From: Minisyncoccota bacterium
Lineage (GTDB): Bacteria; Patescibacteriota; Minisyncoccia; Phycocordibacterales; SBAW01
Length of the DNA: 64,000 nt
Direction of reading: 5' to 3'
Assembly (NCBI GenBank): GCA_035546615.1
Contig: DASZWM010000006.1
Span: 1 to 64,000 of the forward strand
The notes beneath the pieces were generated by a model. It made no database searches, was not told the DNA's origin, and was given only the letters and a program-made list of their open reading frames with translations. A program made the position numbers and the translations under genes. Of this stretch, positions 1,069 through 51,293 are shown piece by piece (the first letter of the stretch is position 1; each line of letters opens with the position of its first letter).

Positions 1069-1841
1069 TGAGCAAGGTTTCACCTTGCTCAGACTCAGAA
1101 CTACTCTTTATAGGATAGCCACTCCGTTATGTTTTGCCTGAAGTTCTCCGGCGTTTCAAAATACCGTGGGAGGGCCGTTGATTCCAATACTGTCGCTTCC
1201 GGGCGCCCACGCCCCAGGTAATCGGGATAGCTTGAGTACGCATACCTCTCCAAATATGCGTCGGTTTTTTTCCTATTCTTGATCCCGTGCTCTCTCCAGT
1301 TTTTGTCGATGAGTTTTACCGGATTCAGATGTATATACGAAAGGAGATATTTCAGATACCGGTCTTCTTCGGCGTGTTCCGATTTGAATACCCCCTGGAA
1401 CAGTGCGCCATTCCTTTCGTAGCGTTTATTAAAATACATCGTGTATCCCGTCGTCAGTTTCTGCATGAATCTGCTGATACCGTCGCCACCTTTCTCGCGT
1501 ACCAGCAGGTGAAAGTGGTTCGGCATCAGGCAATATGCAACGATATCGACGAGCGTCTCTCCGCGTTCTTGCGTCAACGCGCGCCCAAGCAAGGTGAAAT
1601 CTTTCGCAGGGTGGGCACGCTGCATATTGTCGATGCGAATTGGTTCTTTAGAATTGGCGAGATAGAGCAGGCATATAAAACGCTCGTAATCTTCCGTATG
1701 CACGAATACCTTTCTTTTGTCCGTGCCGCGGTTGTATAGGTGATAGAACTCTTGGGGAGCGAAAGGCGCGCGATTGGTCATAGGGGCAATATAGTAATGA
1801 ATCCCCATTTGAGCAAGGTTTAACCTTGCTCAAATGGGGAT
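1069..1841. mobile_element. tnpA-only IS200-like / RAYT unit bounded by near-identical palindromic hairpins
   Basis: Left hairpin TGAGCAAGGT-ttc-ACCTTGCTCA (~1069..1091). Right 41-nt perfect palindrome ATCCCCATTTGAGCAAGGTT-t-AACCTTGCTCAAATGGGGAT (~1801..1841) containing the tnpA start codon. Both share core GAGCAAGGTT. Confidence 0.6.
1101..1808 (-). CDS. IS200/IS605-family HUH (Y1) transposase, REP-associated tyrosine transposase (RAYT)-like
   Basis: YHLYNRG N-terminal motif; HUH motif in MPNHFHLLV; downstream Tyr-containing region. Locally lower GC. Flanked by hairpins. Confidence 0.7.
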   Translation of the reverse strand: MGIHYYIAPMTNRAPFAPQEFYHLYNRGTDKRKVFVHTEDYERFICLLYLANSKEPIRIDNMQRAHPAKDFTLLGRALTQERGETLVDIVAYCLMPNHFHLLVREKGGDGISRFMQKLTTGYTMYFNKRYERNGALFQGVFKSEHAEEDRYLKYLLSYIHLNPVKLIDKNWREHGIKNRKKTDAYLERYAYSSYPDYLGRGRPEATVLESTALPRYFETPENFRQNITEWLSYKE

Positions 1842-7157: not shown

Positions 7158-8018
7158 ATGAAGACACTGCGCGAAACGATAGGCGAGTTCAGGGCGGCGG
7201 GGAAGGCTATAGGCCATTTTAATTTTTCCGACTCCAACCAGCTCAAGGCTATCGCCGAGGCGGCGCGCGAGACGGGACTTCCGGTCATCGCGGGGCTTTC
7301 CGAAGGCGAGCGCACCTACTTTCACACCTCGCATGCGCGCGCCGTCATCGATATCTATCGCGCGGAAGGCGTGGAGATCTTCCTGAATGCCGACCATACC
7401 TACAGCGTCGAGAAAGTCCAGCGAGCTATTTCCGCGGGTGTCGATTCGGTCGTCGTGGACGGCGCGAAGCTCCCGTTTGAGGAGAATGTGCACATGCTCA
7501 CCGCCTGCGTTAAGTACGCCCGCGCGGCCGGGCGCGATGTCGTGATGGAAGGCGAGCTCGGCTACATCGGCCAGTCTTCCCAGCAGCTCGACTCTCTCCC
7601 CGAAGGCGTTACCGAGGGGAATCTCACGACCGTAGAGGACGCCAAGCGGCTCGTGTCGGAAAGCGGCATCGACTGCTTCGCTCCGGCCGTAGGCAACGTG
7701 CACGGCATGCTCAAGTCTGCCAAGGAACCGCGCCTCCACCCGGACCGAGTGAAGGAAATAGCAGAAGCCGTCGGCATCCCGCTGGTGCTTCATGGAGCGT
7801 CCGGCAATACCGAAGCGGAAATAGCGGAGTGCATCAAGGCGGGCGTGGCGATTGTCCATATAAACACCGAGCTGCGCGTCGCCTACCGCGACGCCCTTAA
7901 AAGGTCGCTCATGGAGCACCCGGAGGAGACCACGCCGTACAAGTTCCTCACTCCCGCCGTAGACGAGATGAAAGCGTTTCTCATGGGCAAGATGAAGGTA
8001 TTCGCAGGACAAGCATAA
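7158..8018 (+). CDS. fba: Class II fructose-bisphosphate aldolase
   Basis: FNFSDSNQ..; LHGASG; class II aldolase/tagatose-bisphosphate aldolase family length (286 aa). Confidence 0.85.
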   Translation: MKTLRETIGEFRAAGKAIGHFNFSDSNQLKAIAEAARETGLPVIAGLSEGERTYFHTSHARAVIDIYRAEGVEIFLNADHTYSVEKVQRAISAGVDSVVVDGAKLPFEENVHMLTACVKYARAAGRDVVMEGELGYIGQSSQQLDSLPEGVTEGNLTTVEDAKRLVSESGIDCFAPAVGNVHGMLKSAKEPRLHPDRVKEIAEAVGIPLVLHGASGNTEAEIAECIKAGVAIVHINTELRVAYRDALKRSLMEHPEETTPYKFLTPAVDEMKAFLMGKMKVFAGQA

Positions 8019-8058
8019 AGTTGCCAGATAGCCATACATCTGTTACATTATTCAGGCA

Positions 8059-8718
8059 ATGGAACTGGCAGTCACAAAGCGCGATACCTCGACGAAGGCG
8101 AAATCCTTGCGCAGCAAGGGCCTTTTGCCTGGCGTCATATACGGCCGTTCCGAGGAGTCCACTCCCATCACTGTAGACCGCAAGACCTTCGACAAGCTCT
8201 TCCACGCGGCGGGCGAGTCCACCGTCATCACGCTCTCGGGCCTCGGCGAGGAGAAGGACGCGCTCATCCACGAAGTGGCTGTTGACGCCGTTACCGGCAC
8301 GGCGGTCCATGTCGATTTTTACGCGATTCAGAAGGGCCAGACCGTTACCGTATCCATTCCGCTGGAGTTTGACGGCGAGTCCCAGGCGGTGAAGGAGCTC
8401 GGCGGCATTTTGGTGAAGGTCATGCACGAGCTTGAGATAGAATGCCAGCCGAAGGACCTCCCGCACGCCATCCATGTCGATATTTCGAAGCTCGCGACGC
8501 TTGAGGACCAGATAAAGGTGAAGGACCTCCAGGGCATTCCCGCATCGGCCAAGATCTCCGTCGACCCCGAGGAAGTCGTGGCCATGATCGACGTCGCCAA
8601 GGAGGAGCCGGTCGAGGAAGCCGCGGCCGACATCTCCGCTATCGAGATCTCCGAAGACCGCGGCAAGAAGGAAGAGGAAGGCGAAGGAGCCGCTCCGGCC
8701 GCAGAAGCGAAAGAATAG
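8059..8718 (+). CDS. rplY: 50S ribosomal protein L25 / general stress protein Ctc, with acidic C-terminal tail
   Basis: TKAKSLRSKGLLPGVIYG N-terminus typical of L25/Ctc; E/A-rich tail. Confidence 0.85.
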   Translation: MELAVTKRDTSTKAKSLRSKGLLPGVIYGRSEESTPITVDRKTFDKLFHAAGESTVITLSGLGEEKDALIHEVAVDAVTGTAVHVDFYAIQKGQTVTVSIPLEFDGESQAVKELGGILVKVMHELEIECQPKDLPHAIHVDISKLATLEDQIKVKDLQGIPASAKISVDPEEVVAMIDVAKEEPVEEAAADISAIEISEDRGKKEEEGEGAAPAAEAKE

Positions 8719-10762: not shown

Positions 10763-11737
10763 ATGGACCTGACCCCGTACAAGGAAAATCCCAAGACGGC
10801 CTTTCTGGCCCAGGAATATGAGCGTCTCCTCGCCGAGGAGATGGAGATTCGCGCCATAGACGACGCGGAGCTTCGCGACTTGGCGAAGGACGACATCGCG
10901 CGCATCGACGAGCAGAAAACCGCCCTCTTGGCCCAGATGGACAAGATACTCGATAGCGAGAAGGAAGAGGAGGAATTTCCGAACGAGATAATATTGGAAG
11001 TCCGCGCCGGCGTGGGCGGGGAAGAGGCCGCGCTCTTCGCCGAACAGCTCGCGCAAATGTACCGCGCCTACGCCGAAAGCGAGGGCTGGAACGTGCGCGT
11101 GCTTTCGGAATCGAAATCGGAGCTCGGCGGCTATAAGGAAGTGATGTTCGAGGTAAAGGGCCTCGGCGTCTACAAGCGCCTGCGCTACGAGACCGGCGTG
11201 CACCGCATCCAGCGCGTGCCCGCCACCGAGAAAAGCGGCCGCATCCACACCTCGACCGCGTCCGTGGCTATCATGCCCATCCGCAAGAAGCACAAGATAG
11301 AGGTGAATCCCGGCGACATCGACATGGAGTTCTCGCGCTCGGGAGGCGCCGGCGGCCAGAACGTCAACAAGGTCGAAACGGCCGTGCGCCTCATCCACCG
11401 CCCGACCGGCGTGGACGCGCGCTCGACCTCCGAGCGCAGCCAGGCCGCCAACCGCGAAAAGGCGATGGCAGTGCTCCTCGCCAAGCTCGAAGTGCTCGAG
11501 GAAGAGCGTACCCGCGCGAAGCTTTCAAGCGACCGCAAAGAGCAGATAGGCACCGGCGACCGCTCCGAGAAGATACGCACCTACAACAGCCTCCAGGACC
11601 GCGTTACCGACCACCGCATCAAGGAGTCGTGGCACAACCTGCCGGGCATCCTGGGGGGCAATCTCGCTCCCATACTGGACGCCCTTGAAACGGCGGCCCG
11701 GGCGGGGGTGCCTGTTGCAGAAGGGGCGGAAGAATGA
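10763..11737 (+). CDS. prfA: Peptide chain release factor 1
   Basis: GGQ motif ([11 protein letters not shown]); PAT tripeptide (RF1-type PxT); 324 aa. Confidence 0.88.
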
Positions 11738-11759
11738 TATTCTTGAGCCTCGTTCACCC

Positions 11760-12494
11760 ATGGAGAAAGACCAGATCATAGAGAAGCTTTTTTCGGTTGG
11801 AGCCCACTTCGGCTACAGCCCTTCGCGCCGCCACCCTTCGACGGCGCCCTTTATCTATGGCTCCAAGGGCGGCACCGAGCTCTTCGACCTCGAAAAGACG
11901 GCCGGCTGCCTTGAGGGCGCGCTCGCGTTCGTAAAATCGCTCGCGCAAGAGCGCAAGGTCATCCTCTTCGTCGGCGGCAAGGCGGAGGCCCGCGGCGCGC
12001 TCAAGCGCGTCGCCGAGCGTCTTAATCTCCCGTACGTCGCATCCCGCTGGATAGGCGGCACCCTCACGAACTTCGGCGAGATCCGCAAGCGCCTCAACCG
12101 CCTGACCGAGCTTTCCGACATGCGCGAGAAGGGCGAGCTCGGCAAGTTCACCAAGCTTGAGCGCCTGCTCATCGACCGCGAGATAACGGAGCTTGACCTC
12201 ATGTTCGGAGGCCTGCGCGGCATGAACAAGCTCCCCGACGCCGTGGTCGTCATTGACCCGCGCCAGGAGGACGGCGTCGTCCGCGAGGCGCGCCAGTTCG
12301 GCATCCCGGTCATCGCGCTCCTCAACTCCGACTGCGACCGCTCTCTCATCACGTACCCCATTCCCGCCAACGACGCGTCGGTAGACAACATCACGTTCAT
12401 ACTCGACAAGATAGGCGAGGCATACGCGGACAATCTCGCTCCCGCGCCGACAGCCGCCCCCGCCGAGGCTCCCGCGCACGACGCGCGCGCATAA
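11760..12494 (+). CDS. rpsB: 30S ribosomal protein S2
   Basis: LFSVGAHFGYSPSRRHP...LEKT; start moved to internal ATG at 11760 (ORF upstream portion overlaps prfA). Confidence 0.88.
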   Translation: MEKDQIIEKLFSVGAHFGYSPSRRHPSTAPFIYGSKGGTELFDLEKTAGCLEGALAFVKSLAQERKVILFVGGKAEARGALKRVAERLNLPYVASRWIGGTLTNFGEIRKRLNRLTELSDMREKGELGKFTKLERLLIDREITELDLMFGGLRGMNKLPDAVVVIDPRQEDGVVREARQFGIPVIALLNSDCDRSLITYPIPANDASVDNITFILDKIGEAYADNLAPAPTAAPAEAPAHDARA

Positions 12495-12497
12495 CCT

Positions 12498-12953
12498 ATG
12501 GCAGTTTCCGCAGAGCAGGTAAAGACGCTTCGCGACCAGACCGGCGTCTCCATGATGGAGTGCAAGAAGGCGCTTGAAGCGGCCGACGGCGACATGGACA
12601 AGGCGCTCGCAATACTCAGCACCCGCAGCGTCGAGATAATGGCCAAGAAGGCCGACCGCACGCTTGCCGCCGGCGTCATTTCTTCCTACATACACATCAC
12701 GGGGCAGGTCGGGGCGATGGTGGCCCTTTCCTGCGAGACCGACTTCGTCGCCAAGAACGAGGAATTCGTGGCGCTTGCGCGCGACATCGCGATGCATGCG
12801 GCCGCCATGCGCCCCGAGAGCGTCGAGGCGCTCCTCGCCCAGCCGTTCATCAAGGACGCGGAGAAGACCGTTACCGATCTCATATCGGCGGCAACGCAGA
12901 AATTCGGCGAGCGCATCGAAATAGGCTCGCTTTCGGTAGCCTCGATAGGGTAG
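12498..12953 (+). CDS. tsf: Elongation factor Ts (short form)
   Basis: VKTLRDQTGVSMMECKKALEAADGDMDKA UBA-like N-terminus; only 151 aa. Confidence 0.85.
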   Translation: MAVSAEQVKTLRDQTGVSMMECKKALEAADGDMDKALAILSTRSVEIMAKKADRTLAAGVISSYIHITGQVGAMVALSCETDFVAKNEEFVALARDIAMHAAAMRPESVEALLAQPFIKDAEKTVTDLISAATQKFGERIEIGSLSVASIG

Positions 12954-12995
12954 GCAGAGGCTCAAAGGGCTTTGCTATACTAAGAGGATACTCCT

Positions 12996-13412
12996 ATGGC
13001 GTCTTTCCTCACCATAACCCTCGTCGTTTCCGCATCCGGGCTTATTCTCATGCTTGCCCTTAAGTGCTACGAGATGCGGCGCGGCCGGCTTATCCTCGCC
13101 TCTGTCCGGCCCAAAGTCGGCGGCGCGGCGCACAACGCGGTCATGTTCATAGAGTCCGTTCTGCCCGCGCTCTTCCTGCGCGGCGCGCGCGGGCTCGTGG
13201 CCGGCGCGCGGGGCCTCGCGCGCCGGATCGTGGCCCGCAGCATAGTGCTCTTCGAGCGCCTGCTGCATAAGATGCTCGTGTTCATGCACGACATGACGCG
13301 CCCGCCGCAGGCCGGCGGCCCGGCTTCGGCCTTCCTCCAGGAGGTAGCGGAGCACAAGCGCGCGCTTCAGAAGCGCGCGCCGGGAAAGCGCATGATCCTG
13401 GACGACAATTAG
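12996..13412 (+). CDS. Hypothetical membrane protein
   Basis: ORF with N-terminal TM; Arg-rich; no recognisable motif. Confidence 0.3.
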   Translation: MASFLTITLVVSASGLILMLALKCYEMRRGRLILASVRPKVGGAAHNAVMFIESVLPALFLRGARGLVAGARGLARRIVARSIVLFERLLHKMLVFMHDMTRPPQAGGPASAFLQEVAEHKRALQKRAPGKRMILDDN

Positions 13413-13422
13413 CCCGCAGCGT

Positions 13423-13495
13423 GCCGGAGTAGCTCAGTTGGTAGAGCGCCGCTTTTGTAAAGCGAGGGTCGTCGGTTCAAGCCCGACCTCCGGCT
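13423..13495 (+). tRNA. tRNA-Thr (anticodon UGU), CCA not encoded
   Basis: Cloverleaf by hand: acceptor GCCGGAG/CTCCGGC, D arm GCTC-AGTTGGTA-GAGC, anticodon stem CCGCT/AGCGA with loop TTTGTAA (anticodon TGT), T arm GTCGG-TTCAAGC-CCGAC, discriminator T. Confidence 0.85.
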
Positions 13496-13561
13496 CAAGT
13501 AAAATTCCTCGTTTAGGCAATGCTATACTTTTTGCATACCCATTAATATCGGTACGCATAT

Positions 13562-14011
13562 ATGAATCAGCCCGAACGAGCGCCGCATCTGAGAGGCCCT
13601 ATAACGCCCCGGCAGATGGAAGATCCGGCCATAGCACTGGAAGACCTTACCCTTGCCCTTAAGAACGGAAGCCCGGAGAGCGTATATAAGACCGTTACCG
13701 AAAAGGCGGAGTATGGCGCTATAACTCCCGAAATCCGCGATGCCGTAAGCCATCTCGCGGAAGAATGGGTTATTGGCATGTTCGGGCCCTCATCCGGCGC
13801 GACTCCGTATGACGAGGAGTCCATTGGAAAGATACTCAAAACCGTACAGCGGCTGGAGGAAATTCAGCTCCTCAAGAAGGGGCAGCTTGCGGAAAGTCAG
13901 GAATTTGCGGATGCCGCCGCCGCTCGGCTTCAGGAATATGAGGCAAATGCTTTTTTAAGCTCGCTTGAAGCGTTCAAGAAATTTCTCTCCGCTGTAGGCC
14001 TCCAGCCCTAG
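13562..14011 (+). CDS. Hypothetical protein
   Basis: ORF downstream of an AT-rich promoter-like region following the tRNA; no motif recognised. Confidence 0.4.
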   Translation: MNQPERAPHLRGPITPRQMEDPAIALEDLTLALKNGSPESVYKTVTEKAEYGAITPEIRDAVSHLAEEWVIGMFGPSSGATPYDEESIGKILKTVQRLEEIQLLKKGQLAESQEFADAAAARLQEYEANAFLSSLEAFKKFLSAVGLQP

Positions 14012-14697
14012 CGCGTAGAGGTCGCGGCCTTTGTGGTGGCTCCGGTGGTCGTTGCCAGGGTCTTGAGTTCCGGTATCAGCTTCTCCATCTCGTCGAGGCT
14101 TTTGAAGCCGTATACAGGCGCGCGCGTTCCGGCGATGAACGCCGGCAGCTGTCCGTCCACCTTCCGCAGGGCGATCAGGGTCTGGAGCGCGGAAAGGTCG
14201 AGGTTGTAGTCAAAGGAATATACGCGCAGCTCGGGGTACGTCTGGCGCAGGTAGGTAAGCACGTCGCCCATGCGCCCGCAGTCGGGGCAATCGCCGGTGT
14301 TCGAGTAGAAATACAGCACTGCAACGGGCTTCGTCTTGCACTTGGCGGTTATCTGCTGCATCAGAAGGTAATCCTTTATCTCAAGCAGGGAGTACTGCTT
14401 CTTGAGCTGTATCACCTCCGCGTTGTCGGAGCCCAGGCGATTCTCGGTGAAGGAAAGCCGGTCGGCCAGGCCGTTGAGCTCATCGGTCAGTATCGGGTGG
14501 GCCGAGAGCGTCTCGCAGTCTAGGTTTCCGAGGAGCTCGAACTGCACTTCGGAGGACAGCAGGTCGATCGAAATGGCTTCGCCGGTGGCGCGTATGTCGG
14601 CCACCCGCGTGGAGTCGATGCGGGAGGCGATATAAAAAGCCGTGCCGAAAATGGCTGCGGTTATCGCGAACGCGACTACATAGCGGTTCAAGTTCAT
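14008..14697 (-). CDS. Membrane-anchored CxxC-motif protein (thioredoxin-like?)
   Basis: Start set at internal Met (MNLNRYVV) 4 nt after the GT2 stop; N-terminal TM; CPDC motif. Confidence 0.45.
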   Translation of the reverse strand: MNLNRYVVAFAITAAIFGTAFYIASRIDSTRVADIRATGEAISIDLLSSEVQFELLGNLDCETLSAHPILTDELNGLADRLSFTENRLGSDNAEVIQLKKQYSLLEIKDYLLMQQITAKCKTKPVAVLYFYSNTGDCPDCGRMGDVLTYLRQTYPELRVYSFDYNLDLSALQTLIALRKVDGQLPAFIAGTRAPVYGFKSLDEMEKLIPELKTLATTTGATTKAATSTR

Positions 14698-14701
14698 AGG
14701 G

Positions 14702-15937
14702 TTATACCAGCCAGCCGGTCTCCTTGGCGCGCAGCGTGTCCCAGGTCGCGCGCGCGAGCCAGAGCGGCGCAACCAGCCCGAAGAGCGCGAAGTACGTGAC
14801 GAGGGAGGTTGCGGAAATCCGGCTCCCCGCGATGCGGCTGCCGACCACGACCGCCACAAGCGTCAGGCCGGTCACCGCGATAACGAGGAAGGAGAGCATG
14901 CTGGTATCGAGGTAGAACCACTCAAAGTGAGGCAGATGGAATTGGGGCGGGATGCCGGTTACCCAGAAATCGATGCCGCGGGCCAGGAGCATCTTCACGA
15001 TGCCGTACAGGCCCCATGCGGCGGTGTAGAGGCCGCCGACGAACGCCAGCAGGCCGAAGGGGAGCGCGAACAGGCCAAGGTGGCCGAATCGCGGATTGAA
15101 GTACATATAGTAATAGTCCCGCGAGTTCTCAAGGAAGCCGCGCGACCACCGCACGCGCTGGCGCACGAGCCCGCCTATCGTGGTCGGGACCTTCGTTTCT
15201 ACCACCGCGGTGTGCGCGTTGGCGATTACCATGCGGTTGGCATGCAGGCGGAAGGCCATTTCCATGTCCTCAGTGTGATGCGCATGGCGGAAGAGGCCTA
15301 TCTTCTCAAATACGTCGCGGCGGTAGAAGGAGAACGGCCCCGGCAGGACGTTTATGGCCGAAAGGTTGTCGAACATCTTGCGGTAGAACACGCCGAATAT
15401 ATATTCCACCGACTGCATGCGCTCCAGGAGCGTTCGCGGCTCAAATACTTTCATGGCCGGCGTCACCGCCATGATGTTGGGGTCGCTCTCGAACTTCTTT
15501 ACCATCTCGATAAGCGCGTCGGGCGCCACGAACGAGTCGGCATCAAGGCATCCGACCAGCTCGCTGTCGGTATGCTTGAGGCCGAAGTTGAGCGCAGAGA
15601 ATTTGCTGCCCTCGTTCTCTTTGGCGAGTATGCGCACCTGCGCGTGCCCGGCGAATTCTTGCGCGGCCGCCAGCGTGCCGTCGGTCGAGCCGTCGTCGAT
15701 TATCAAAATAGAGAGCCGGTCGGCGGGGTACTCAAGCGCGAGGAGCGAATGCATGGTCGCTCCCAAAGTCTTTGCCTTGTTCCAGCAGGGCACCAAAATA
15801 GCCACGCTCGGGTAGCGTGCGGGCATCGCGGCGGTCTTCGCGTGCGGCCGCTTTTCGAGGAAGGAAATCAGCAGAAATACCTCGAAATACAGCCCCATGA
15901 ACAAGCATATATACATGCCTATAGCCCCTACTTCCAT
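14702..15937 (-). CDS. Processive family-2 glycosyltransferase (NodC/PgaC/cellulose-synthase-like), integral membrane
   Basis: DDGSTDGT, DAD, and QRVRWSRG (Q-x-x-RW) motifs; multiple TM segments. Confidence 0.8.
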   Translation of the reverse strand: MEVGAIGMYICLFMGLYFEVFLLISFLEKRPHAKTAAMPARYPSVAILVPCWNKAKTLGATMHSLLALEYPADRLSILIIDDGSTDGTLAAAQEFAGHAQVRILAKENEGSKFSALNFGLKHTDSELVGCLDADSFVAPDALIEMVKKFESDPNIMAVTPAMKVFEPRTLLERMQSVEYIFGVFYRKMFDNLSAINVLPGPFSFYRRDVFEKIGLFRHAHHTEDMEMAFRLHANRMVIANAHTAVVETKVPTTIGGLVRQRVRWSRGFLENSRDYYYMYFNPRFGHLGLFALPFGLLAFVGGLYTAAWGLYGIVKMLLARGIDFWVTGIPPQFHLPHFEWFYLDTSMLSFLVIAVTGLTLVAVVVGSRIAGSRISATSLVTYFALFGLVAPLWLARATWDTLRAKETGWLV

Positions 15938-15965
15938 GATGGAAAGTATAGCATTTTAGGGCTTT

Positions 15966-16727
15966 TTGAGCGATACTTTACGAATCCGTATGTCAGACAC
16001 GCCTACCGGCCACATCCATCCGATTTCAAGCCTTATCCGCGAGGCAAACCGCATATTTGCGGGCATGGGATTCTCCTTCGCCGAGGGCCCGCTCCTGGAG
16101 ACAGAATGGTACAACTTCGACGCGCTCAACGTGCCGAAGGACCATCCCGCGCGCGACATGCAGGACACCTTTTTTATAAAGGACGCGCCGGGCCACGTAT
16201 TGCGCACGCACACCTCGCCTGTCCAGGTGCGCTATATGGAAGCGCAGGCGAAGAAGGGCATCATGCCGCCGTATCGCATCATCGTGCCGGGCCGCGCGTT
16301 CCGCAACGAGGCGACCGACATGACGCACGAGGCCGAGTTCTTCCAGATAGAAGGGCTGGCGGTCGGGCCTGACATCACGCTTGGCAATCTCAAGGGCACG
16401 CTCGAGCAATTCTTCAAGGAATTATTCAAAGGCTCGGTCGAAGTGCGCTTCCGCCCGAGCTTCTTCCCGTTCGTCGAGCCGGGAGTCGAGGTTGATATGC
16501 GCCTGAGCGGCAATGACGTGCCCGAAAAGCTCAAGGATAAGTGGATAGAGATAATGGGCGCCGGCATGGTGCATCCGAATGTGCTAAAGAGCGCTGGGGT
16601 AGATCCGGTTCAGTACCGCGGTTTCGCCTTCGGCATGGGCCTCGACCGCCTCGCGATGCTCCGGTGGGGCATCGACGATATCCGCCTCATGCACTCCGCC
16701 GACCTGCGCTTCATCAATCAATTCTAG
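15966..16727 (+). CDS. pheS: Phenylalanyl-tRNA synthetase alpha subunit, catalytic core only (N-terminal coiled-coil arm absent)
   Basis: Class II core motifs (DHPARDMQDTFF; FRNEATDMTHEAEFFQIEG; GMGLDRLAML); 253 aa. Confidence 0.88.
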   Translation: MSDTLRIRMSDTPTGHIHPISSLIREANRIFAGMGFSFAEGPLLETEWYNFDALNVPKDHPARDMQDTFFIKDAPGHVLRTHTSPVQVRYMEAQAKKGIMPPYRIIVPGRAFRNEATDMTHEAEFFQIEGLAVGPDITLGNLKGTLEQFFKELFKGSVEVRFRPSFFPFVEPGVEVDMRLSGNDVPEKLKDKWIEIMGAGMVHPNVLKSAGVDPVQYRGFAFGMGLDRLAMLRWGIDDIRLMHSADLRFINQF

Positions 16728-16729
16728 AT

Positions 16730-17029
16730 ATGTGGAATATTGATTGGAGCTTAATAGGAATCGTAGGTCTTGCAGTAGCCACTATGTCTATTGCTATTAA
16801 GATTATCGGAGTACCTGACCAGATAAAAAGGAATTATCGTCGCAAATCAACGGAAGGAGTTTCTCTTTTATTCTATGTAATGTCTTTTGCCACTTATTTT
16901 CTCTGGGCATTATATGGATTTTTAAAAGATGATTGGGTTGTGTTTCTCGCTCAAGGTTCTTTAGGCTGTGTCACAAGTGGCATCATTCTTTGGCAATTTT
17001 TTGTGTATAGAAAAAACAAAAAGATATGA
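16730..17029 (+). CDS. SemiSWEET / PQ-loop family small transporter (AT-rich insert in pheST operon)
   Basis: 99 aa, 3 TM; architecture and motifs parallel to SemiSWEETs (…IGVPDQIKRNYRRKSTEGVSLLFYVM…LWALYGFLKDD…); stop overlaps pheT start (ATGA). Confidence 0.6.
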   Translation: MWNIDWSLIGIVGLAVATMSIAIKIIGVPDQIKRNYRRKSTEGVSLLFYVMSFATYFLWALYGFLKDDWVVFLAQGSLGCVTSGIILWQFFVYRKNKKI

Positions 17030-18849
17030 AAATCTCGCGCCGCTGGATTCAAAACTTTTTCAATGACGAACTGTCGAACACGCAGGCGCTTGCCGACGCG
17101 CTTACGTTCCACGCCTTCGAGATAGACGGCATCGAGCCGTATTCTGGACTTACGAAGTCCAGAATTTTGGACGAGATACTGGACGTTAAGGTTACCCCTA
17201 ACCGCGGGCACGATTGCCTGTGTCACCGCGGCATCGCAAAAGAACTTTCAGCCATTCTTAAGCTTCCGCTTAAGCAAGACCCGCTCGGCAAGAAGCCGGA
17301 GCTTGTCCCAGCTACCGATGCCGTTTCCGTAACGCTTGAGGACCCGGCGCTTAGCCCGCGCTACATCGCCGGATACATGAAGAACGTGAAGGTCGGTCCG
17401 TCGCCTGACTGGCTTGTAGAGGCCCTTGAAGCCATGGGCCAGCGCTCAATCAACAATGTCGTTGATGCGACGAACATGGTGATGTTCAATCTCGGCCAGC
17501 CCTTGCACGCCTTTGACGCGGGCAAGCTCGCGCAGAAAGACGGCAAATATGGCATCGTCGTCCGCAGGGCGCGTGCGGGAGAGAAGATCCTCGCGCTCGA
17601 CCAGAAAGAGTATGTCCTTCAGGATTCCATGCTCGTTATTGCCGACGGCAACAAGGACGAAGCTATCGGCATCGCCGGCGTGAAGGGCGGCACGCCGGCG
17701 GGCATTACCGAAGCGACGACCGACATCATCATCGAGTCCGCCAACTTCAACGGCGTGTCCGTCCGTAAGACCGCCCAGGCGCTGAAGCTGCGCACCGACG
17801 CGTCCAGCCGCTTTGAGCAGGGCCTCAGCCCCGAGCTGTGCGCATACGGCATGCAGCAGGTCGTTGATCTCATAAAAACAATCGCAAGCGGGGAACTGGT
17901 CGGCTTTGCCGATGTATATCCGGCGCCCCAAGGGCCCGCCTATGCTGCAGTATCGGTAGAGAAGGTCAATCAGATACTGGGTACTCAGCTCACCGGCACG
18001 GAGGTGGCGGACGCTTTTGCGCGCCTCGGCTTCGCATACAAAGAAGAGAATGGAGTATTCCAGGTCACGGTCCCGTTCGAGCGCCTCGACATAACGATCC
18101 CGGAAGATTTGGTCGAGGAGGTCGGCCGCATCGTCGGCTACGACAAGGTACCCGCTGTGCCTCTGCCTCCCATGCCCCCCTCTTCCCAAGCAAGCGCGAG
18201 CTTCTCGGCGACAGAGCGCGTCCGCGCGGATCTCATAAAGCAGGGATATTCGGAAGTTCTTACGTCCGTATTTTCAGACAAGGGCGAGCGCGCGGTGTTA
18301 AATAAAGTGGACAGCGTAAAGCCGTATTTGCGCAGCAATCTCACCGATGGACTTACCGAAGCTCTGAAAAAGAACATTCCGAACAAAGACCTGCTTGGAC
18401 TTAAGGAAGTAAAGCTGTTCGAGATAGGAACTGTCTGGAAAGGTGATAAGGAGGAAGTAGTGGTCGGCACCGTAAGCGAAAAGAAGCAGGCCGAAGAAAA
18501 AGCGCTGAGCGAATATGCGGCTGATTCGGCTCCTGTACAAGACCTGCCGCTTTCGCAAACGGAGCGGTACCAGTCATTCTCCAAGTATCCCTACATCGTG
18601 CGCGATATCGCTATGTGGACTCCTGCACGTACGACGCCCGAATCGGTTCAGGAACTTATACAGGCTGAGGCGGGGGAGTTGTGCACAAAAGTATCGCTCT
18701 TCGACCAGTTCCAAAAAGGAGAAAAGACTTCGCTCGCGTTCCGCCTAATATTCCAATCATTTGAAAAGACGCTCACGGAAGGGGATGCAAACCAGGCGAT
18801 GGAAAAGGTAGCGGCAAAACTGAAAGAAAAAGGCTTCGAGATCAGGTAA
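17026..18849 (+). CDS. pheT: Phenylalanyl-tRNA synthetase beta subunit (short, 607 aa)
   Basis: N-terminal tRNA-binding (VTPNRGHDCL), B5 domain, C-terminal FSKYPYIVRDIAMW anticodon-binding region. Confidence 0.88.
   Translation: MKISRRWIQNFFNDELSNTQALADALTFHAFEIDGIEPYSGLTKSRILDEILDVKVTPNRGHDCLCHRGIAKELSAILKLPLKQDPLGKKPELVPATDAVSVTLEDPALSPRYIAGYMKNVKVGPSPDWLVEALEAMGQRSINNVVDATNMVMFNLGQPLHAFDAGKLAQKDGKYGIVVRRARAGEKILALDQKEYVLQDSMLVIADGNKDEAIGIAGVKGGTPAGITEATTDIIIESANFNGVSVRKTAQALKLRTDASSRFEQGLSPELCAYGMQQVVDLIKTIASGELVGFADVYPAPQGPAYAAVSVEKVNQILGTQLTGTEVADAFARLGFAYKEENGVFQVTVPFERLDITIPEDLVEEVGRIVGYDKVPAVPLPPMPPSSQASASFSATERVRADLIKQGYSEVLTSVFSDKGERAVLNKVDSVKPYLRSNLTDGLTEALKKNIPNKDLLGLKEVKLFEIGTVWKGDKEEVVVGTVSEKKQAEEKALSEYAADSAPVQDLPLSQTERYQSFSKYPYIVRDIAMWTPARTTPESVQELIQAEAGELCTKVSLFDQFQKGEKTSLAFRLIFQSFEKTLTEGDANQAMEKVAAKLKEKGFEIR
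17141..17165. repeat. 25-nt perfect palindrome ATTCTGGACTTACGAAGTCCAGAAT inside pheT (codes YSGLTKSRI)
   Basis: Read directly; same core recurs at 43719 and 27626. Confidence 0.9.
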
Positions 18850-26232: not shown

Positions 26233-27531
26233 ATGAACAGCAATATTATAAACATAGGTCGTAAGATAAGCGTTGCTCTTATAGCGCTTATAGTTCTCGT
26301 GTTGCCTTTCGCTTCGGTGCAGGCAGCTGACTACTCTGACTATGATTATGTCGGGACCTCGTATTATGGTTCTGACTCTTCTAGCGATTACGTCGGGACT
26401 TCCTATTATGATTCCGGTTCTTCAAATAGTGGGAGCGATTACGTAGGAACGTCTTACTATACTCCTGATACTTCCAATGACTATGATTACGTTGGAACTT
26501 CGTACTATGAAGATAACTCTTCTGACTATGATTATGTCGGAACCTCCTATTATGGCTCTGGCTGCACCACGAACTGTGGCGGCGGTGGAGGTGGCGGCGG
26601 GGGCGGCGGATGCCGTTCTAACTGCACCCCTCCTCCTCCGAAGCCGGCCCCGGTTTGCGACCTCTCGGTCAGCCCTTCGCGCGTAGATTACGGCGATTCC
26701 GTAACTATCTCCTGGACCACGTCCAACGCCATCAGCGCCTTCCTCGCCGGTTTCGGCACGGTGTCCACTAACGGCTCCCGCACCAGCGGCGCTATCTATG
26801 GCACCAAGACCTACACTCTTACCGCGACCGCAAGCGGCGGCCGCACGGTAACCTGCTCCAAGACCGTTACAGTCGAGCGCGAGCATGAGCACACGCCCGA
26901 TCTCGAGTGCAAGCTTAAGGCTTCCGACACGAGCATCGAGCGCGGAGACTCGGTCCGCATCACCTGGTCTAGCGACGGCGCTGACTACGGCTACATCACT
27001 CCGGATATCGGTGATGTCGATGAAAGCGGTTCCGACACGGTAGAACCTCGCTCTGATACGACTTACAAGGGTACCTTCTACAACGACGACGGCGACAAGG
27101 TTACCTGCTCGGTCAAGGTAAACGTTGACCGCGAGTACAATCCGCCGGTCTACGAGAATCCGACTCCGTACATTAACCTCTCCGCTGTTCCGTACACCGG
27201 CCTTGACCTCGGTCCTGTCGGTACGGTTCTCTACTGGGCGTTCCTCATCGCATGGTGCCTCGTTGCCGCATACCTTATCGCGGTCAAGCGCGTCCACATG
27301 AGCGTGTACCGCTGGTACAAGAAGGCGCTCTTCGGCGAGGAGGTGCACTTCGCGCCGGCGCAGGAAGTCTCCTTCGCAGGGTTCTCCCACGCTGATGTCG
27401 CAAAGCTCGCAGAGATGCTTCGCGGCGCAGTCGCTCCCTCGCACGCTTCGGCACCTGTTGCTGCAGCTCCCGCAGGCGATGCGATAGACCCGTTCATCCT
27501 CTCGCAGATCCATCGCACTCCGCGCTCCTAA
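26233..27531 (+). CDS. Surface repeat protein: 5x DYVGTSYY repeats, poly-Gly/Cys spacer, two Ig-like C...C domains, TM, cytoplasmic tail
   Basis: Signal peptide; repeats D-Y-(D-Y)-V-G-T-S-Y-Y separated by S/D-rich spacers; CGGGGGGGGGGGGC; PPPPKP; two ~70-aa Cys-bounded beta-rich modules; VLYWAFLIAWCLVAAYLIAV TM. 5' third is AT-rich. Confidence 0.5.
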   Translation: MNSNIINIGRKISVALIALIVLVLPFASVQAADYSDYDYVGTSYYGSDSSSDYVGTSYYDSGSSNSGSDYVGTSYYTPDTSNDYDYVGTSYYEDNSSDYDYVGTSYYGSGCTTNCGGGGGGGGGGGCRSNCTPPPPKPAPVCDLSVSPSRVDYGDSVTISWTTSNAISAFLAGFGTVSTNGSRTSGAIYGTKTYTLTATASGGRTVTCSKTVTVEREHEHTPDLECKLKASDTSIERGDSVRITWSSDGADYGYITPDIGDVDESGSDTVEPRSDTTYKGTFYNDDGDKVTCSVKVNVDREYNPPVYENPTPYINLSAVPYTGLDLGPVGTVLYWAFLIAWCLVAAYLIAVKRVHMSVYRWYKKALFGEEVHFAPAQEVSFAGFSHADVAKLAEMLRGAVAPSHASAPVAAAPAGDAIDPFILSQIHRTPRS

Positions 27532-27590
27532 AGCGCCGAAGCGGATGCCTCTGCGCAAGCAGGGAACAAGCCTCCAAAATATTGTCAGCA

Positions 27591-27617
27591 AAATCCCGCC
27601 GTATGGCGGGATTTTGC
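27591..27617. terminator. Bidirectional terminator AAAATCCCGCC-gtat-GGCGGGATTTT
   Basis: A/T tracts on both sides of GC stem; between convergent repeat-protein gene and thrS. Confidence 0.6.
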
Positions 27618-27625
27618 GTTACAAC

Positions 27626-27652
27626 TATTCTGGACTTCGTAAGTCCAGAATA
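27626..27652. repeat. Palindromic element copy TATTCTGGACTTCGTAAGTCCAGAATA (opposite centre orientation), abutting thrS stop codon
   Basis: 27-nt palindrome; centre CGT instead of ACG; intergenic between convergent genes. Confidence 0.9.
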
Positions 27653-28900
27653 TTATTTGCGCTCGGCTATCTCTTCCTTCAGTTTTGAAACTATTTCGGC
27701 AATGGGGAGTGCTCCAAGTTTGCCTTCGCGGCCCTCAAGGCTTGCGGTGTTGGCTGCAACTTCCGCGTCGCCGATCACAAGCGTGTAGGGGATTTTCTGC
27801 GTCTTTGCCTCGCGTATCTTCTTGCCTAGGCTCTCATTGCTTTCGTCGATGTCCGCGCGGATGCCAGCCCTCTTGAGCTCCTGCGCGACCTTTGCGGCAA
27901 ATTCTTTGTGCGGCTCGGCAATAGGAATGACGCGAGCCTGAAGGGGAGAAAGCCAGGTGGGAAGCGTGCCGTCGTAGTGCTCAAGCAGTACCGCGATGCA
28001 GCGCTCGAGGCTGCCGGCTATAGCCGCGTGCACCATCACGATGCGCTCCTTCTCGCCCTTTTCATTGATGCAGGTAAGGTCGAAGCGCTCGGGGATGTTC
28101 ATGTCGAGCTGGATGGTCGCGACCTGCCACTCGCGCCCGGCGGAATTCTTTGCCATGAAATCGAGCTTGGGCCCGTAGAGCGCCGCCTCGCCCGGGCCTT
28201 CAAACGTGTCGGCCCCGCGTTCCTCGGCAAGGCTGCGCAACTCGCTCTCGGCCTTGTCCCATATCTCCGGGGTACCTAGATATTTCTCGGGAGTCGCCGG
28301 GTCGCGGAAGGAAAGCCGTATACGCAATGTGAAGCCGAATGTCTTGTAGAAGGTGTCAACGATATCCCAGATCTTTAGGAATTCCTCGCGCACCTGACTA
28401 GTGCGGCAGAATACGTGTGCGTCGTCCTGAGCAAAACCCAAAACGCGAGTGAGGCCGCCAAGCTCTCCGGACTGCTCGTCGCGGTAGACCATGGTGGTCT
28501 CGGCGTAGCGCTGCGGCATCTCGCGGTACGAGAACGGCCGCCGCGCGAATATCTGCGTGTGGTGCGGGCAATTCATCGGCTTCATCGCGTACTCGCGGCC
28601 CTCGCGCGACGTTATCTTGAAGAGGTCATCGGCGAACTTTTCCCAGTGGCCGCTTGTCTCATAGAGGTCTTTCTTGGTGATGTGGGGGATGGTGACGCGC
28701 TCGTAGCCTCGCGCTTCGCGCATCTCCCAAATAAAGCGGTCGAGCTCCTGGCGCAGAATAGTGCCGCGCGGGGTCCACAGCGGCAGGCCCGAGCCGACGA
28801 GGTCGGAGAAGGTGAAGAGGTCGAGCTCCTGGCCAATTTTGCGGTGGTCGCGTTCTTCCATAGATAGTTCCAAGAGTATCAAGTGTGGGGATTTTTGCAA
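27653..28900 (-). CDS. thrS: Threonyl-tRNA synthetase, catalytic + anticodon-binding domains only (no N-terminal TGS/editing domains)
   Basis: PMNCPHH, RVLGFAQDDAHVFC class II motifs; 415 aa versus ~640 aa canonical. Confidence 0.88.
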   Translation of the reverse strand: MQKSPHLILLELSMEERDHRKIGQELDLFTFSDLVGSGLPLWTPRGTILRQELDRFIWEMREARGYERVTIPHITKKDLYETSGHWEKFADDLFKITSREGREYAMKPMNCPHHTQIFARRPFSYREMPQRYAETTMVYRDEQSGELGGLTRVLGFAQDDAHVFCRTSQVREEFLKIWDIVDTFYKTFGFTLRIRLSFRDPATPEKYLGTPEIWDKAESELRSLAEERGADTFEGPGEAALYGPKLDFMAKNSAGREWQVATIQLDMNIPERFDLTCINEKGEKERIVMVHAAIAGSLERCIAVLLEHYDGTLPTWLSPLQARVIPIAEPHKEFAAKVAQELKRAGIRADIDESNESLGKKIREAKTQKIPYTLVIGDAEVAANTASLEGREGKLGALPIAEIVSKLKEEIAERK

Positions 28901-42660: not shown

Positions 42661-43500
42661 TTGCTTTTCCCGCCCTCCTTTATACTGTGGAGTATGTATC
42701 CTCCTGTTTCTGACCTGCTCGCAGAGCTCTCTTTATTTCCCGGAAGGGAAGACGGCTTGCGGAAAATTAAAAGGTATAGCAATGAGAAAGTAGCTTTTTA
42801 CCGCTCTTCTGATTTTTCTCATAGCAAGAGAGTGGCGTGGCTTGTATATAGTCTCATCCCATTATTATCAGAGGTAGATAAGACTTTTGATATAGGGCGC
42901 GCTGTGGCTATGGCGCTCGTGCACGACGATGCTGAACTGATAACGGGTGATCATCAAGCTGGTAATAAAAGCAAAATGACCAAAGAGCAGCTTGCTGCAA
43001 TTGCTGACGAAGAACGTGAAGCGATTGCCGCTTTGGCAAAGAGATATCCAAAAACTCTCGGCGGATATGTCTATCAGGACCTAGTACAAGATCTCGCTGA
43101 TCTAAAGAATTCTGAAGCTCATTTTGTTAAGTACTTTGATCGTTTTGATGCTTTGGGGGAGACTTACCATGAACTCTTTGCAGGGAATGTGGTTTGGACG
43201 CAAAACGTAGTTAATGAGTGGGGCATCATTCCCACACCTTTTATGTATTACTACGATAGGCTGCCGCCCATGGTTGAGAAGTATCCGATCCTGACTGCTT
43301 TAAAAGGAAAACATGTATTCTTCGATGTCCCTGAAGCCAGAGAATGGGAATCATTTGTCCTGACTCGTCAGCCTCATACAAAGGATTCAATACTTGCGTC
43401 TACTGGTCATAGGCAATATGATGCCTGGCGCTCTGTTGTTATTGATTCTGCAGATCAAGAAGAAATCGCAAATCTCTACTCTCAACAAGAATACCTATGA
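42661..43500 (+). CDS. HD-domain phosphohydrolase (YfbR/5'-deoxynucleotidase-like), AT-rich insert
   Basis: H...HD motif (ALVHDDAELITGDH); gene visibly AT-rich relative to flanks; stop overlaps trmD start (ATGA). Confidence 0.65.
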   Translation: MLFPPSFILWSMYPPVSDLLAELSLFPGREDGLRKIKRYSNEKVAFYRSSDFSHSKRVAWLVYSLIPLLSEVDKTFDIGRAVAMALVHDDAELITGDHQAGNKSKMTKEQLAAIADEEREAIAALAKRYPKTLGGYVYQDLVQDLADLKNSEAHFVKYFDRFDALGETYHELFAGNVVWTQNVVNEWGIIPTPFMYYYDRLPPMVEKYPILTALKGKHVFFDVPEAREWESFVLTRQPHTKDSILASTGHRQYDAWRSVVIDSADQEEIANLYSQQEYL

Positions 43501-44153
43501 ATTTCCATGTCGTAACGCTTTTTCCGGAAGTTATCGAGGCCTATACGAACGCTTCGATACTGGGCCGTGCCCAGAAAGAGAAGAAGTTTTCCGTTAAGAC
43601 CTACCAGCTGCGCGATTTCGTCAGCAATAAATGGGGCAAGGTAGACGAGCGCCCATACGGCGGCGGCCCGGGCATGGTTATCCAGGCCGAGCCGGTCATC
43701 AGGGCAGTCCAGAAAATATCTGGACTTACGAAGTCCAGAATTCGGCCGAAGGTCATTATTACTGCGGCAGGCGGCAAGCCTTTGACCAACGCGTATGCCA
43801 AAGCGCTTTTGAAGCAAAAGGACGTCATAATCGTTTGCGGCAGGTACGAAGGCATCGACGCCCGGGCAAAAAAAGTGCTCAAGGCCGAAGAAGTCTCCGT
43901 TGGGCCGTACATTCTGACCGGGGGCGAGGTTCCGGCCTTGGCAATCATTGATGCGACCGCTCGGCAGATAAAGGGCGTTTTGGGCAAGTTCGAGTCCCTC
44001 GAGGAGTCCCGGGTCGCAAGCCACGAGATATACACCCGCCCCGAGGTCCTGAAAGCAAAAGGAAAGAACTACGCGGTCCCGAAGGTCCTCCTCTCCGGCC
44101 ATCATGCAAAGATGGACCAGTGGAAAGAAAAGAAACGCAGCAAACCCCTATAA
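43497..44153 (+). CDS. trmD: tRNA (guanine37-N1)-methyltransferase
   Basis: MNFHVVTLFPEV...; RPYGGGPGMV; CGRYEGIDAR SPOUT-knot motifs. Confidence 0.9.
   Translation: MNFHVVTLFPEVIEAYTNASILGRAQKEKKFSVKTYQLRDFVSNKWGKVDERPYGGGPGMVIQAEPVIRAVQKISGLTKSRIRPKVIITAAGGKPLTNAYAKALLKQKDVIIVCGRYEGIDARAKKVLKAEEVSVGPYILTGGEVPALAIIDATARQIKGVLGKFESLEESRVASHEIYTRPEVLKAKGKNYAVPKVLLSGHHAKMDQWKEKKRSKPL
43719..43739. repeat. Palindromic element copy TCTGGACTTACGAAGTCCAGA inside trmD (codes ISGLTKSRI)
   Basis: Identical 21-nt core and identical reading frame as the pheT copy. Confidence 0.9.

Positions 44154-44315: not shown

Positions 44316-51293
<6,978 letters not shown>

Follow-up and report, generated by a model that had tools for sequence, protein, structure and literature searches.

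Repetitive extragenic palindromic (REP) sequences and the REP-associated tyrosine transposases (RAYTs, TnpAREP) have been described in Proteobacteria, together with the arrangements known as 'REPtrons' and REPINs (Nunvar 2010, PMC2817692; Bertels & Rainey 2011, PMC3116915; Messing 2012, PMC3479197; Di Nocera 2013, PMC3733652; PMC5581495). Classical REPs carry a GTAG or CGTC tetranucleotide tag at the foot of the hairpin, and intragenic REPs are a known minority class, some of them in tRNA synthetase genes (PMC3733652). A further group of repeats, the Rickettsia palindromic elements (RPEs; Ogata et al.), is inserted in frame in coding genes (summarized in PMC3733652). Here we analyze a short palindrome that lies in frame within trmD, the gene for a SPOUT methyltransferase, on contig DASZWM010000006.1 of a Minisyncoccota bacterium (Patescibacteria); the window is the whole 64-kb stretch analyzed, positions 1 to 64,000. 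We consider it likely, with a probability of roughly 0.78, that this palindrome belongs to a family of REP-like hairpin repeats associated with a RAYT-type Y1 transposase, as an intragenic copy that lies in frame. Enzymes of the Y1 (HUH) RAYT type bind and cut hairpins in single-stranded DNA. To our knowledge, work on REPs and RAYTs has been done almost entirely in Proteobacteria, where the repeats are treated as extragenic, and in the literature searched we found no description of a REP/RAYT system in Patescibacteria (the Candidate Phyla Radiation, CPR).

The trmD copy of the element occupies 43719..43739 on the + strand and has the form TCTGGACTT-ACG-AAGTCCAGA, a perfect palindrome with 9-bp arms (44% GC) around a 3-nt loop, translated as S75-G-L-T-K-S-R81. 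With one codon on either side, 43716-43742 reads ATA TCT GGA CTT ACG AAG TCC AGA ATT and encodes I74-S-G-L-T-K-S-R-I82 of TrmD. The host gene (43497..44153, + strand) encodes a 218-aa protein that scores 136.8 bits against Pfam tRNA_m1G_MT and matches solved TrmD structures at E 5e-45; among the homologous proteins compared (labeled P0xxx, as related contigs and loci are labeled L0xx), P0001 is identical to it and bears the NCBI name TrmD, from a Candidatus Paceibacterota metagenome-assembled genome (MAG). The palindrome falls between the PYGGGPGM (P53-M60) and CGRYEGID (C114-D121) motifs. A preliminary description of the window had placed this sequence and peptide at TrmD residues ~74-82, between those two motifs, and had called it a separate locus of an element that also lies in pheT, with the same frame and peptide; the letters of the window and the translation of the open reading frame (ORF) bear this out throughout.

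Searching the window for the pattern TCTGGACTTNNNAAGTCCAGA with up to 3 mismatches returned 3 matches, all of them exact (17143-17163, 27629-27649 and 43719-43739), for a density of ~1 per 20 kb. The same pattern in 100 dinucleotide shuffles gave a mean of 0.00 and a maximum of 0 matches, and a chance palindrome is thereby ruled out, with 0 copies expected against 3 exact ones; the window holds no degenerate copies or isolated half-sites of the hairpin. The pheT copy (17141..17165, + strand, core 17143-17163), within pheT (17026..18849, +), is ATTCTGGACTT-ACG-AAGTCCAGAAT with 11-bp arms, and shares the orientation and frame of the trmD copy, its peptide reading YSGLTKSRI. The third copy (27626..27652, - strand, core 27629-27649) is intergenic, has 12-bp arms, and lies directly 3' of the stop codon of thrS (27653..28900, -); its loop is CGT on the + strand and so ACG on the sense strand of thrS. 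As RNA, the three window copies have predicted hairpin energies of -11.9, -13.6 and -15.2 kcal/mol (z -4.3 to -6.2). An intrinsic terminator was ruled out for the trmD copy, which is mid-ORF and is followed by ATTCGGCC, without a T run. An Rfam scan of the window found no family match for the hairpin, its sole hit being a tRNA at 13423-13495.

The family to which these copies belong has the core TCTGGAYTT-ACG-AARTCCAGA, usually extended to ATA...TAT. In a genome-collection scan, the exact palindrome recurred in other Patescibacteria contigs as 6 copies on three contigs of one MAG, and it is also present in JGI and ENA metagenome contigs (L013-L022). Matches from the same scan in Ensifer, Actinomadura, Clostridia and Kofleriaceae have loops of CAT, ATG, TGC and GGC, look like chance palindromes in large genomes, and were set aside. 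Most copies outside the window are intergenic, in both orientations relative to the upstream gene; one lies in holB of L022, again in the SGLTKSR frame, and others are read in a different frame as LDLRSPD. We did not count the L020 copy as coding, as it lies near the N terminus of a long surface-protein ORF and may precede the true start. Copies readable from one genome mostly have one stem type in common. Because the unit is 21 nt long, or 7 codons, and 5 of its 6 reading frames are open (one frame of the CGT orientation contains a TAA stop), it can survive inside ORFs.

We then compared orthologous copies. The trmD genes of L009/L010 and L011/L012, which come from independent assemblies, are 78-80% identical in nucleotide sequence to the window gene, from which they differ at 86-96 codons synonymously and at 21-22 non-synonymously. 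The 21 nt of the palindrome plus AAAATA upstream (43713-43739) are identical in the trmD genes of the window, L009 and L011, and this 27-nt run is the longest identical in all three. Third-position identity over the three genes is 0.416 (58% changed), which puts the chance of all 7 third positions matching at 0.002, and an identical run of 27 nt or more arose in 182 of 10,000 codon shuffles. In L023, whose TrmD is 86% identical, the same codons hold ATATCTGGGTTT-ACG-AAACCCAGATAT, a perfect palindrome with 12-bp arms that differs from the window hairpin by two compensatory pair changes and alters the peptide to SGFTKPR; at the same site in the pheT of L025 (10113-10137; PheT 71% identical) we found ATGTTGGATTT-ACG-AAATCCAACAT, with three compensatory changes.

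We aligned 22 copies from 12 loci. All nine core pairs are Watson-Crick in 22/22 copies, with no G-T pair in 198 core cells, and the ACG loop does not vary. Two-sided changes occur at 7 of the 9 core pairs and one-sided changes at 0 of 9. Covariation scores 0.332, compared with 0.109 after shuffling (0/500 shuffles reached the observed value), and the signal collapses once the partner columns are slid. Together, these comparisons show that the insertion into trmD predates the split of at least three lineages, and that what has been conserved since insertion is base pairing on both strands and not the peptide. Because no G-T (wobble) intermediates were seen, the pattern points to a constraint that acts on both DNA strands rather than on the mRNA alone. 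The preliminary description had proposed that the element is tolerated inside a SPOUT methyltransferase, which fits with an intact gene and an allele kept in at least three diverged lineages; on the evidence of the aligned sequences, 'tolerated' understates the case, as at the nucleotide level the hairpin has been kept, with compensating changes.

The hairpin also brackets a transposase gene in relatives. Identical hairpins stand on both sides of this gene in L006, L016 and L017, where, read on the sense strand of the gene, the 5' copy has a CGT loop and the 3' copy an ACG loop; that is, the two are inverted. Both flanks in L028 carry the GGATTT variant, TCTGGATTT-CGT-AAATCCAGA, one compensatory pair change away from the window hairpin; in L029 the GGATTT variant lies 5' of the gene, and the hairpin 3' of it keeps the ACG loop on another stem, and L020 has the identical hairpin at the 5' side only. 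The hairpin-flanked transposases are 224-227 aa long (225-227 aa in L006, L016 and L017), with no tnpB seen adjoining the gene, and more than 3,000 homologues of the clade were found at E <= 1e-20, the named ones belonging to Kaiserbacteria, Paceibacterota or Patescibacteria.

Several lines of evidence identify the encoded protein. The transposases score 27.8-37.4 bits against Pfam Y1_Tnp (cut-off 23), and NCBIfam REP_Tyr_transpos (NF047646) is their best and only match, at 33-50 bits, below the curated 80-bit cut-off. The HUH motif NHYHLL and the tyrosine motif YIHLNP are invariant in the transposase alignment. A profile search of PDB sequences put 4ER8 in first place, the two motifs aligning to PEHMHCIW and YIYINP; 4ER8 is the structure of TnpAREP from E. 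coli in complex with a REP hairpin. A Foldseek search of the PDB with an AlphaFold model (mean predicted local distance difference test score, pLDDT, 74.7) likewise ranked 4ER8_A first (E 7.1e-6, probability 1.0, TM 0.63 on target), followed by the TnpA proteins of IS608 and ISDra2; phmmer of the transposase against the PDB returned a spurious repeat-protein match only. The protein is a Y1/HUH transposase and a distant relative of the curated RAYT family.

The transposase ORF can itself contain the hairpin. Copies lie within it in L006 (3467-3487), L017 (4175-4195) and L029 (10153-10173), in a loop for which the AlphaFold model predicts disorder (residues 50-62). At the corresponding position, most of 120 listed homologues (P0241-P0360) have the peptide x[DE][LFI][RV][SNG][PR], in which LR or IR corresponds to an ACG loop and FV or IV to a CGT loop, and the stems give DLRSP, DLRNP, EIRSP or DLRGR. 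Most members of the clade thus appear to carry a hairpin inside the transposase ORF, in either orientation, three cases being confirmed in DNA and the rest read from the peptide. We found no description of such an internal hairpin in the literature searched.

Comparison of TrmD and PheT homologues indicates where in the two proteins the element sits. In an alignment of 28 close homologues, the segment from I74 to VIITAAGG is the most variable part of TrmD in both length and sequence. An AlphaFold model of the window TrmD has a helix at 64-75, a coil at 76-84 (pLDDT <50 at 78-80) and a strand at 85-95, and the element adds seven residues to this floppy surface loop. Most relatives have a Lys-rich loop (IKKSKPKAK) that is 3-5 residues shorter, and for S. 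aureus TrmD the shortfall is 4 residues. Among relatives that do not have the peptide, the closest is L031 (TrmD 89% identical), with an unrelated 19-residue loop, AIYKKLGKSSKVKPRWKAK, and no hairpin. Both the variability of the loop among orthologues and the shorter form in relatives that the preliminary description had anticipated are therefore present. It had also named conservation of the loop peptide without the DNA palindrome as an outcome that would count against the idea; orthologues without the palindrome have loops of the IKKSKPKAK type or, in L031, AIYKKLGKSSKVKPRWKAK, and every SGLTKSR orthologue with readable DNA has the palindrome. Codons 78-82 of the L031 gene (1343-2017), CTC GGC AAA TCC AGC, resemble TCT GGA [TTT ACG] AAA TCC AGA with the bracketed centre deleted, and may be a decayed hairpin copy, of which the bases GGC AAA TCC AGC would be what is left of the right arm; the resemblance is weak and we do not use it as support.

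For PheT, most of 120 homologues read FEIESV-ENDILDVKV or FEIDGV-EKVG-NDDVLDVKV at this position, and the window linker is exactly 7 residues longer than the latter, insert-free form (e.g. P0141). Other palindromes occupy the same two sites. The TrmD loop of L024 (trmD 7603-8304) holds palindromes at 7834-7851 and 7863-7888, one of which, AGTTCCATATATGGGACT, has perfect copies at two other places on the contig. This repeat, AGTCCCATATATGGGACT, recurs at 1370-1387 and 1847-1874 and represents a separate repeat family in the same TrmD loop; the second palindrome of the loop is AAATACTACGAT-GT-ATCGTAGTATTT. At the pheT site of L026 (270-289) there is a GC-rich palindrome, GCCTGTCTGC/GCAGGCAGGC. 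Because different palindromes occupy the same sites in L024 and L026, the TrmD and PheT loops are places where hairpin repeats land repeatedly or are tolerated. Several further PheT homologues carry short inserts at the pheT site (e.g. LSHPMTEFE and GHPVSKFE), compared here as peptides.

Set beside the described systems, this element shares much with REP/RAYT: it is a short (21-27 nt) dispersed stem-loop repeat; in relatives, inverted copies bracket one Y1/HUH transposase gene at a fixed chromosomal position; the best structural match of that transposase is 4ER8; stems differ between genomes through compensatory changes; copies occur right after stop codons; and REPIN-like inverted doublets are present. 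Such doublets, GGACTT-CGT-AAGTCC plus GGACTT-ACG-AAGTCC, lie at 13926-13968 and 10126-10164 of L030, one intergenic and one within the transposase ORF, in a genome with at least three stem types. Unlike classical REPs, the hairpins here have no GTAG or CGTC tag at their foot (the flanks of the 22 aligned copies are ATA/TAT or variable) and are perfect rather than imperfect palindromes, whose sole asymmetry is the 3-nt ACG loop. The hairpins occur in a Patescibacteria (CPR) lineage, the transposase has ~225 aa rather than 165 and scores below the NCBIfam cut-off, most clade members appear to have a hairpin inside the transposase ORF, and 2 of the 3 window copies lie in frame within housekeeping genes and are conserved there.

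RPE-1, the first-described RPE, is about 100-150 bp long. The present element resembles RPEs, especially the short RPE-4 and RPE-6, in being a palindromic repeat that lies in frame in intact ORFs (here trmD, pheT and holB) of a reduced genome, and in adding, as RPEs do, peptide segments to proteins that stay functional. It differs from RPE-1 in size (21-27 nt and 7 residues, where RPE-1 encodes tens of residues), from the CGTC-tagged class of RPE-4 and RPE-6 in lacking that tag, and from RPEs in general in having no sequence relationship to them and a host of another phylum. With IS200/IS605 elements such as IS608 and ISDra2, whose ends are hairpins recognized in single-stranded DNA, it shares the Y1 HUH transposase fold. 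Unlike these elements, the transposase gene here is not a multicopy mobile unit, adjoining gap in L006, L029 and the window, with neighboring GAPDH proteins that are 59-63% identical, and the dispersed unit is a solo hairpin. Because intragenic REPs and RPEs had been reported earlier (PMC3733652), the phenomenon is not new in kind.

By analogy with TnpAREP and IS608, a RAYT-type enzyme would have inserted the 21-nt unit as a single-stranded hairpin into the DNA that encodes the TrmD loop. The unit would then have been read through as SGLTKSR with the SPOUT fold left intact, because it comprises 7 codons and 5 of its 6 frames are without a stop. Pairing might persist if the resident copy is still a substrate of the enzyme and evolves in step with the other copies, or if the hairpin itself is selected; in this way the resident copy would remain a working member of the hairpin population of the genome. 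A stronger version, in which hairpins inside genes are maintained working parts of a domesticated transposase system and not passive passengers, has its basis in the copies within transposase ORFs, the compensated trmD and pheT copies, and the prevalence of one stem type per genome, and we regard it as speculative and rather unlikely. Under that version, there is a hint of a gene conversion specific to hairpins, with the enzyme repeatedly rewriting or re-templating copies where they reside; another possibility is a use to the cell, for example in autoregulation of the transposase or as landmarks for replication or repair.

Several observations weigh against the view that the trmD palindrome is a RAYT-linked REP-like repeat. 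Among the differences from classical REPs set out above, the absence of a tag, the perfect symmetry, the location of 2/3 of the window copies inside genes when REPs are by name 'extragenic', and transposase scores of 33-50 bits against a cut-off of 80 all count here. The TrmD loop is 3-5, not 7, residues longer than in most relatives, and simple insertion into a pre-existing loop is clean for pheT and not for trmD. L031 does without the hairpin, and the hairpin is therefore not indispensable to trmD. The count of 3 copies covers 64 kb of the genome.

A further difficulty is that the 64-kb window contains no cognate transposase flanked by the TCTGGACTT hairpin. Its sole Y1 transposase, encoded by a RAYT-like gene at 1101..1808 (- strand) that adjoins gap, is diverged from the clade and is flanked by a different palindrome. 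This protein scores 37.4 bits against Pfam Y1_Tnp and 50 bits against NCBIfam REP_Tyr_transpos (<80). It matches the L006 transposase in tblastn at E 1e-37 and 38% identity and is 35-38% identical to the hairpin-flanked clade, whose compared members are 61-70% identical to one another; the GAPDH proteins encoded beside these transposase genes, by comparison, share 59-63% identity. The palindrome on its 3' side (1069..1091) is TGAGCAAGGT-TTC-ACCTTGCTCA, and a second one, a long form with 20-bp arms of the TGAGCAAGGT-TTN-ACCTTGCTCA type, lies on its 5' side (1801..1841); the window has no further copies of this palindrome. From these comparisons, the gene at 1101..1808 looks like a replaced or fast-diverged transposase that has switched hairpin.

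Other explanations of the trmD palindrome must be weighed against a RAYT-linked repeat. The trmD copies in three lineages and the L023 and L025 variants could be independent, recent insertions at a hot spot rather than products of one ancient insertion. Enzymes of the IS200/IS605 type insert beside a short specific target sequence, and the two sites do attract other hairpins: in L024 the TrmD loop has palindromes of unrelated sequence, one of which is found twice more on that contig, and the pheT site has a different GC-rich palindrome in L026 and is empty in the equally close P0122 and P0123. Nevertheless, the three TrmDs with SGLTKSR are each other's closest relatives (90-91% identity, top matches), and their insertions occupy exactly the same codon with the same left flank and a diverged right flank (ATT CGG, TTG AGG and TCA AGG), as expected from a single insertion, so that we think recurrent insertion unlikely while granting it the most weight of the rivals. 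More doubtful is the possibility that the hairpin is mainly a functional mRNA element (acting in ribosome pausing, transcript stability or protein binding) and that its link to the transposase is secondary. RNA-level roles have been proposed for REPs just 3' of stop codons, the predicted RNA hairpins are strong (-11.9 to -15.2 kcal/mol), the stem is kept and compensated in orthologues, and ACG is on the sense strand in all coding copies examined (trmD, pheT, holB, and the transposase-internal copies of L006, L017 and L029), as it is in the copy at the thrS stop. A constraint on RNA alone would, however, tolerate G-U pairs and one-sided changes, neither of which appears in the 198 core cells; intergenic copies face either way with respect to the upstream gene, the LR/IR and FV/IV peptides of other clade transposases imply both loop orientations, Rfam gives no match, and the hairpin is absent from an L031 TrmD that is otherwise 89% identical. 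We did not build on the consistent orientation relative to transcription, as the intergenic copies are mixed and the independent coding cases few.

Binding of the duplex palindrome by a dimeric protein, with the palindrome serving for example as an operator, a modification site, or a signal for partition or uptake, would account for perfectly symmetric arms with strict Watson-Crick complementarity and for copies dispersed also within genes, in the manner of DNA uptake sequences. We judge it very improbable: the conserved center, ACG, is asymmetric and invariant, the arms vary between genomes while staying complementary, which fits a structure and not a base-specific site, copies bracket a predicted hairpin-binding HUH enzyme, and the density is low at ~1 per 20 kb. 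It could finally be the SGLTKSR peptide that is selected, for example as a binding or modification motif of tRNA-related enzymes, with the palindrome incidental or due to chance, since TrmD, PheT and HolB share peptide and frame, and two of these hosts act on tRNA, as does thrS beside the third copy. This proposal is effectively refuted already by the exact intergenic copy in the window, by the many other copies that are intergenic or read as LDLRSPD, by synonymous sites that are frozen, by compensated variants that change the peptide to SGFTKPR and GFTKSN with pairing kept, and by a chance expectation of 0. A related candidate, mimicry of an anticodon loop (UUACGAA if two closing T-A pairs open, with trmD, pheT and thrS all tRNA-related), was dropped: copies flank transposase genes, some hairpins have different stems and one copy lies in holB, all of which speak against it.

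If the trmD palindrome is a RAYT-linked repeat, these observations amount to a separate family of hairpins, without a tag and associated with a Y1 transposase clade of its own, outside Proteobacteria. In very small genomes with little intergenic space, such repeats would persist where disordered loops are encoded, in frame within the essential genes trmD, pheT and holB and within the transposase gene. The compensated orthologous copies would offer a natural experiment on selection versus transposase-driven homogenization of REP-type hairpins, which is an open question in REPIN biology. Inserts of 7 residues would account for a share of the short lineage-specific indels seen in housekeeping proteins of CPR bacteria, which would then not be protein adaptations.

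A few further features of the window were recorded around these loci. Between thrS and the convergent gene at 26233..27531, a terminator-like hairpin, GCAAAATCCCGCC-GTAT-GGCGGGATTTTGC (27588-27617), is separated from the REP-like copy by 11 nt if the 21-nt core is taken and by 8 nt if the 12-bp-arm form is. The gene itself (26233-27531, +) encodes 432 aa, in which the motif DYVGTSYY is repeated and a run of Gly and a hydrophobic C-terminal segment are present; its product looks like a repetitive secreted or surface protein. Within trmD, over the conserved SILGRAQ motif, 43560-43574 forms a small hairpin with a CGT loop (CTGGGC-CGT-GCCCAG), which is probably due to chance because its stem is only 6 bp. 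The start of trmD overlaps the stop of an upstream HD-domain (YfbR-like) gene (42661..43500) as ATGA (43497-43500), and the gene upstream of trmD differs among relatives, being NADAR in L009. Finally, rpoB and rpoC are fused in the window as a single 2325-aa ORF (44316-51293, +); L009 has the same fusion at 11333-18187 (2284 aa, with the Rpb2 and Rpb1 domains within one product), and in L031 the rpoB-rpoC region is called as 1945 aa plus 365 aa.

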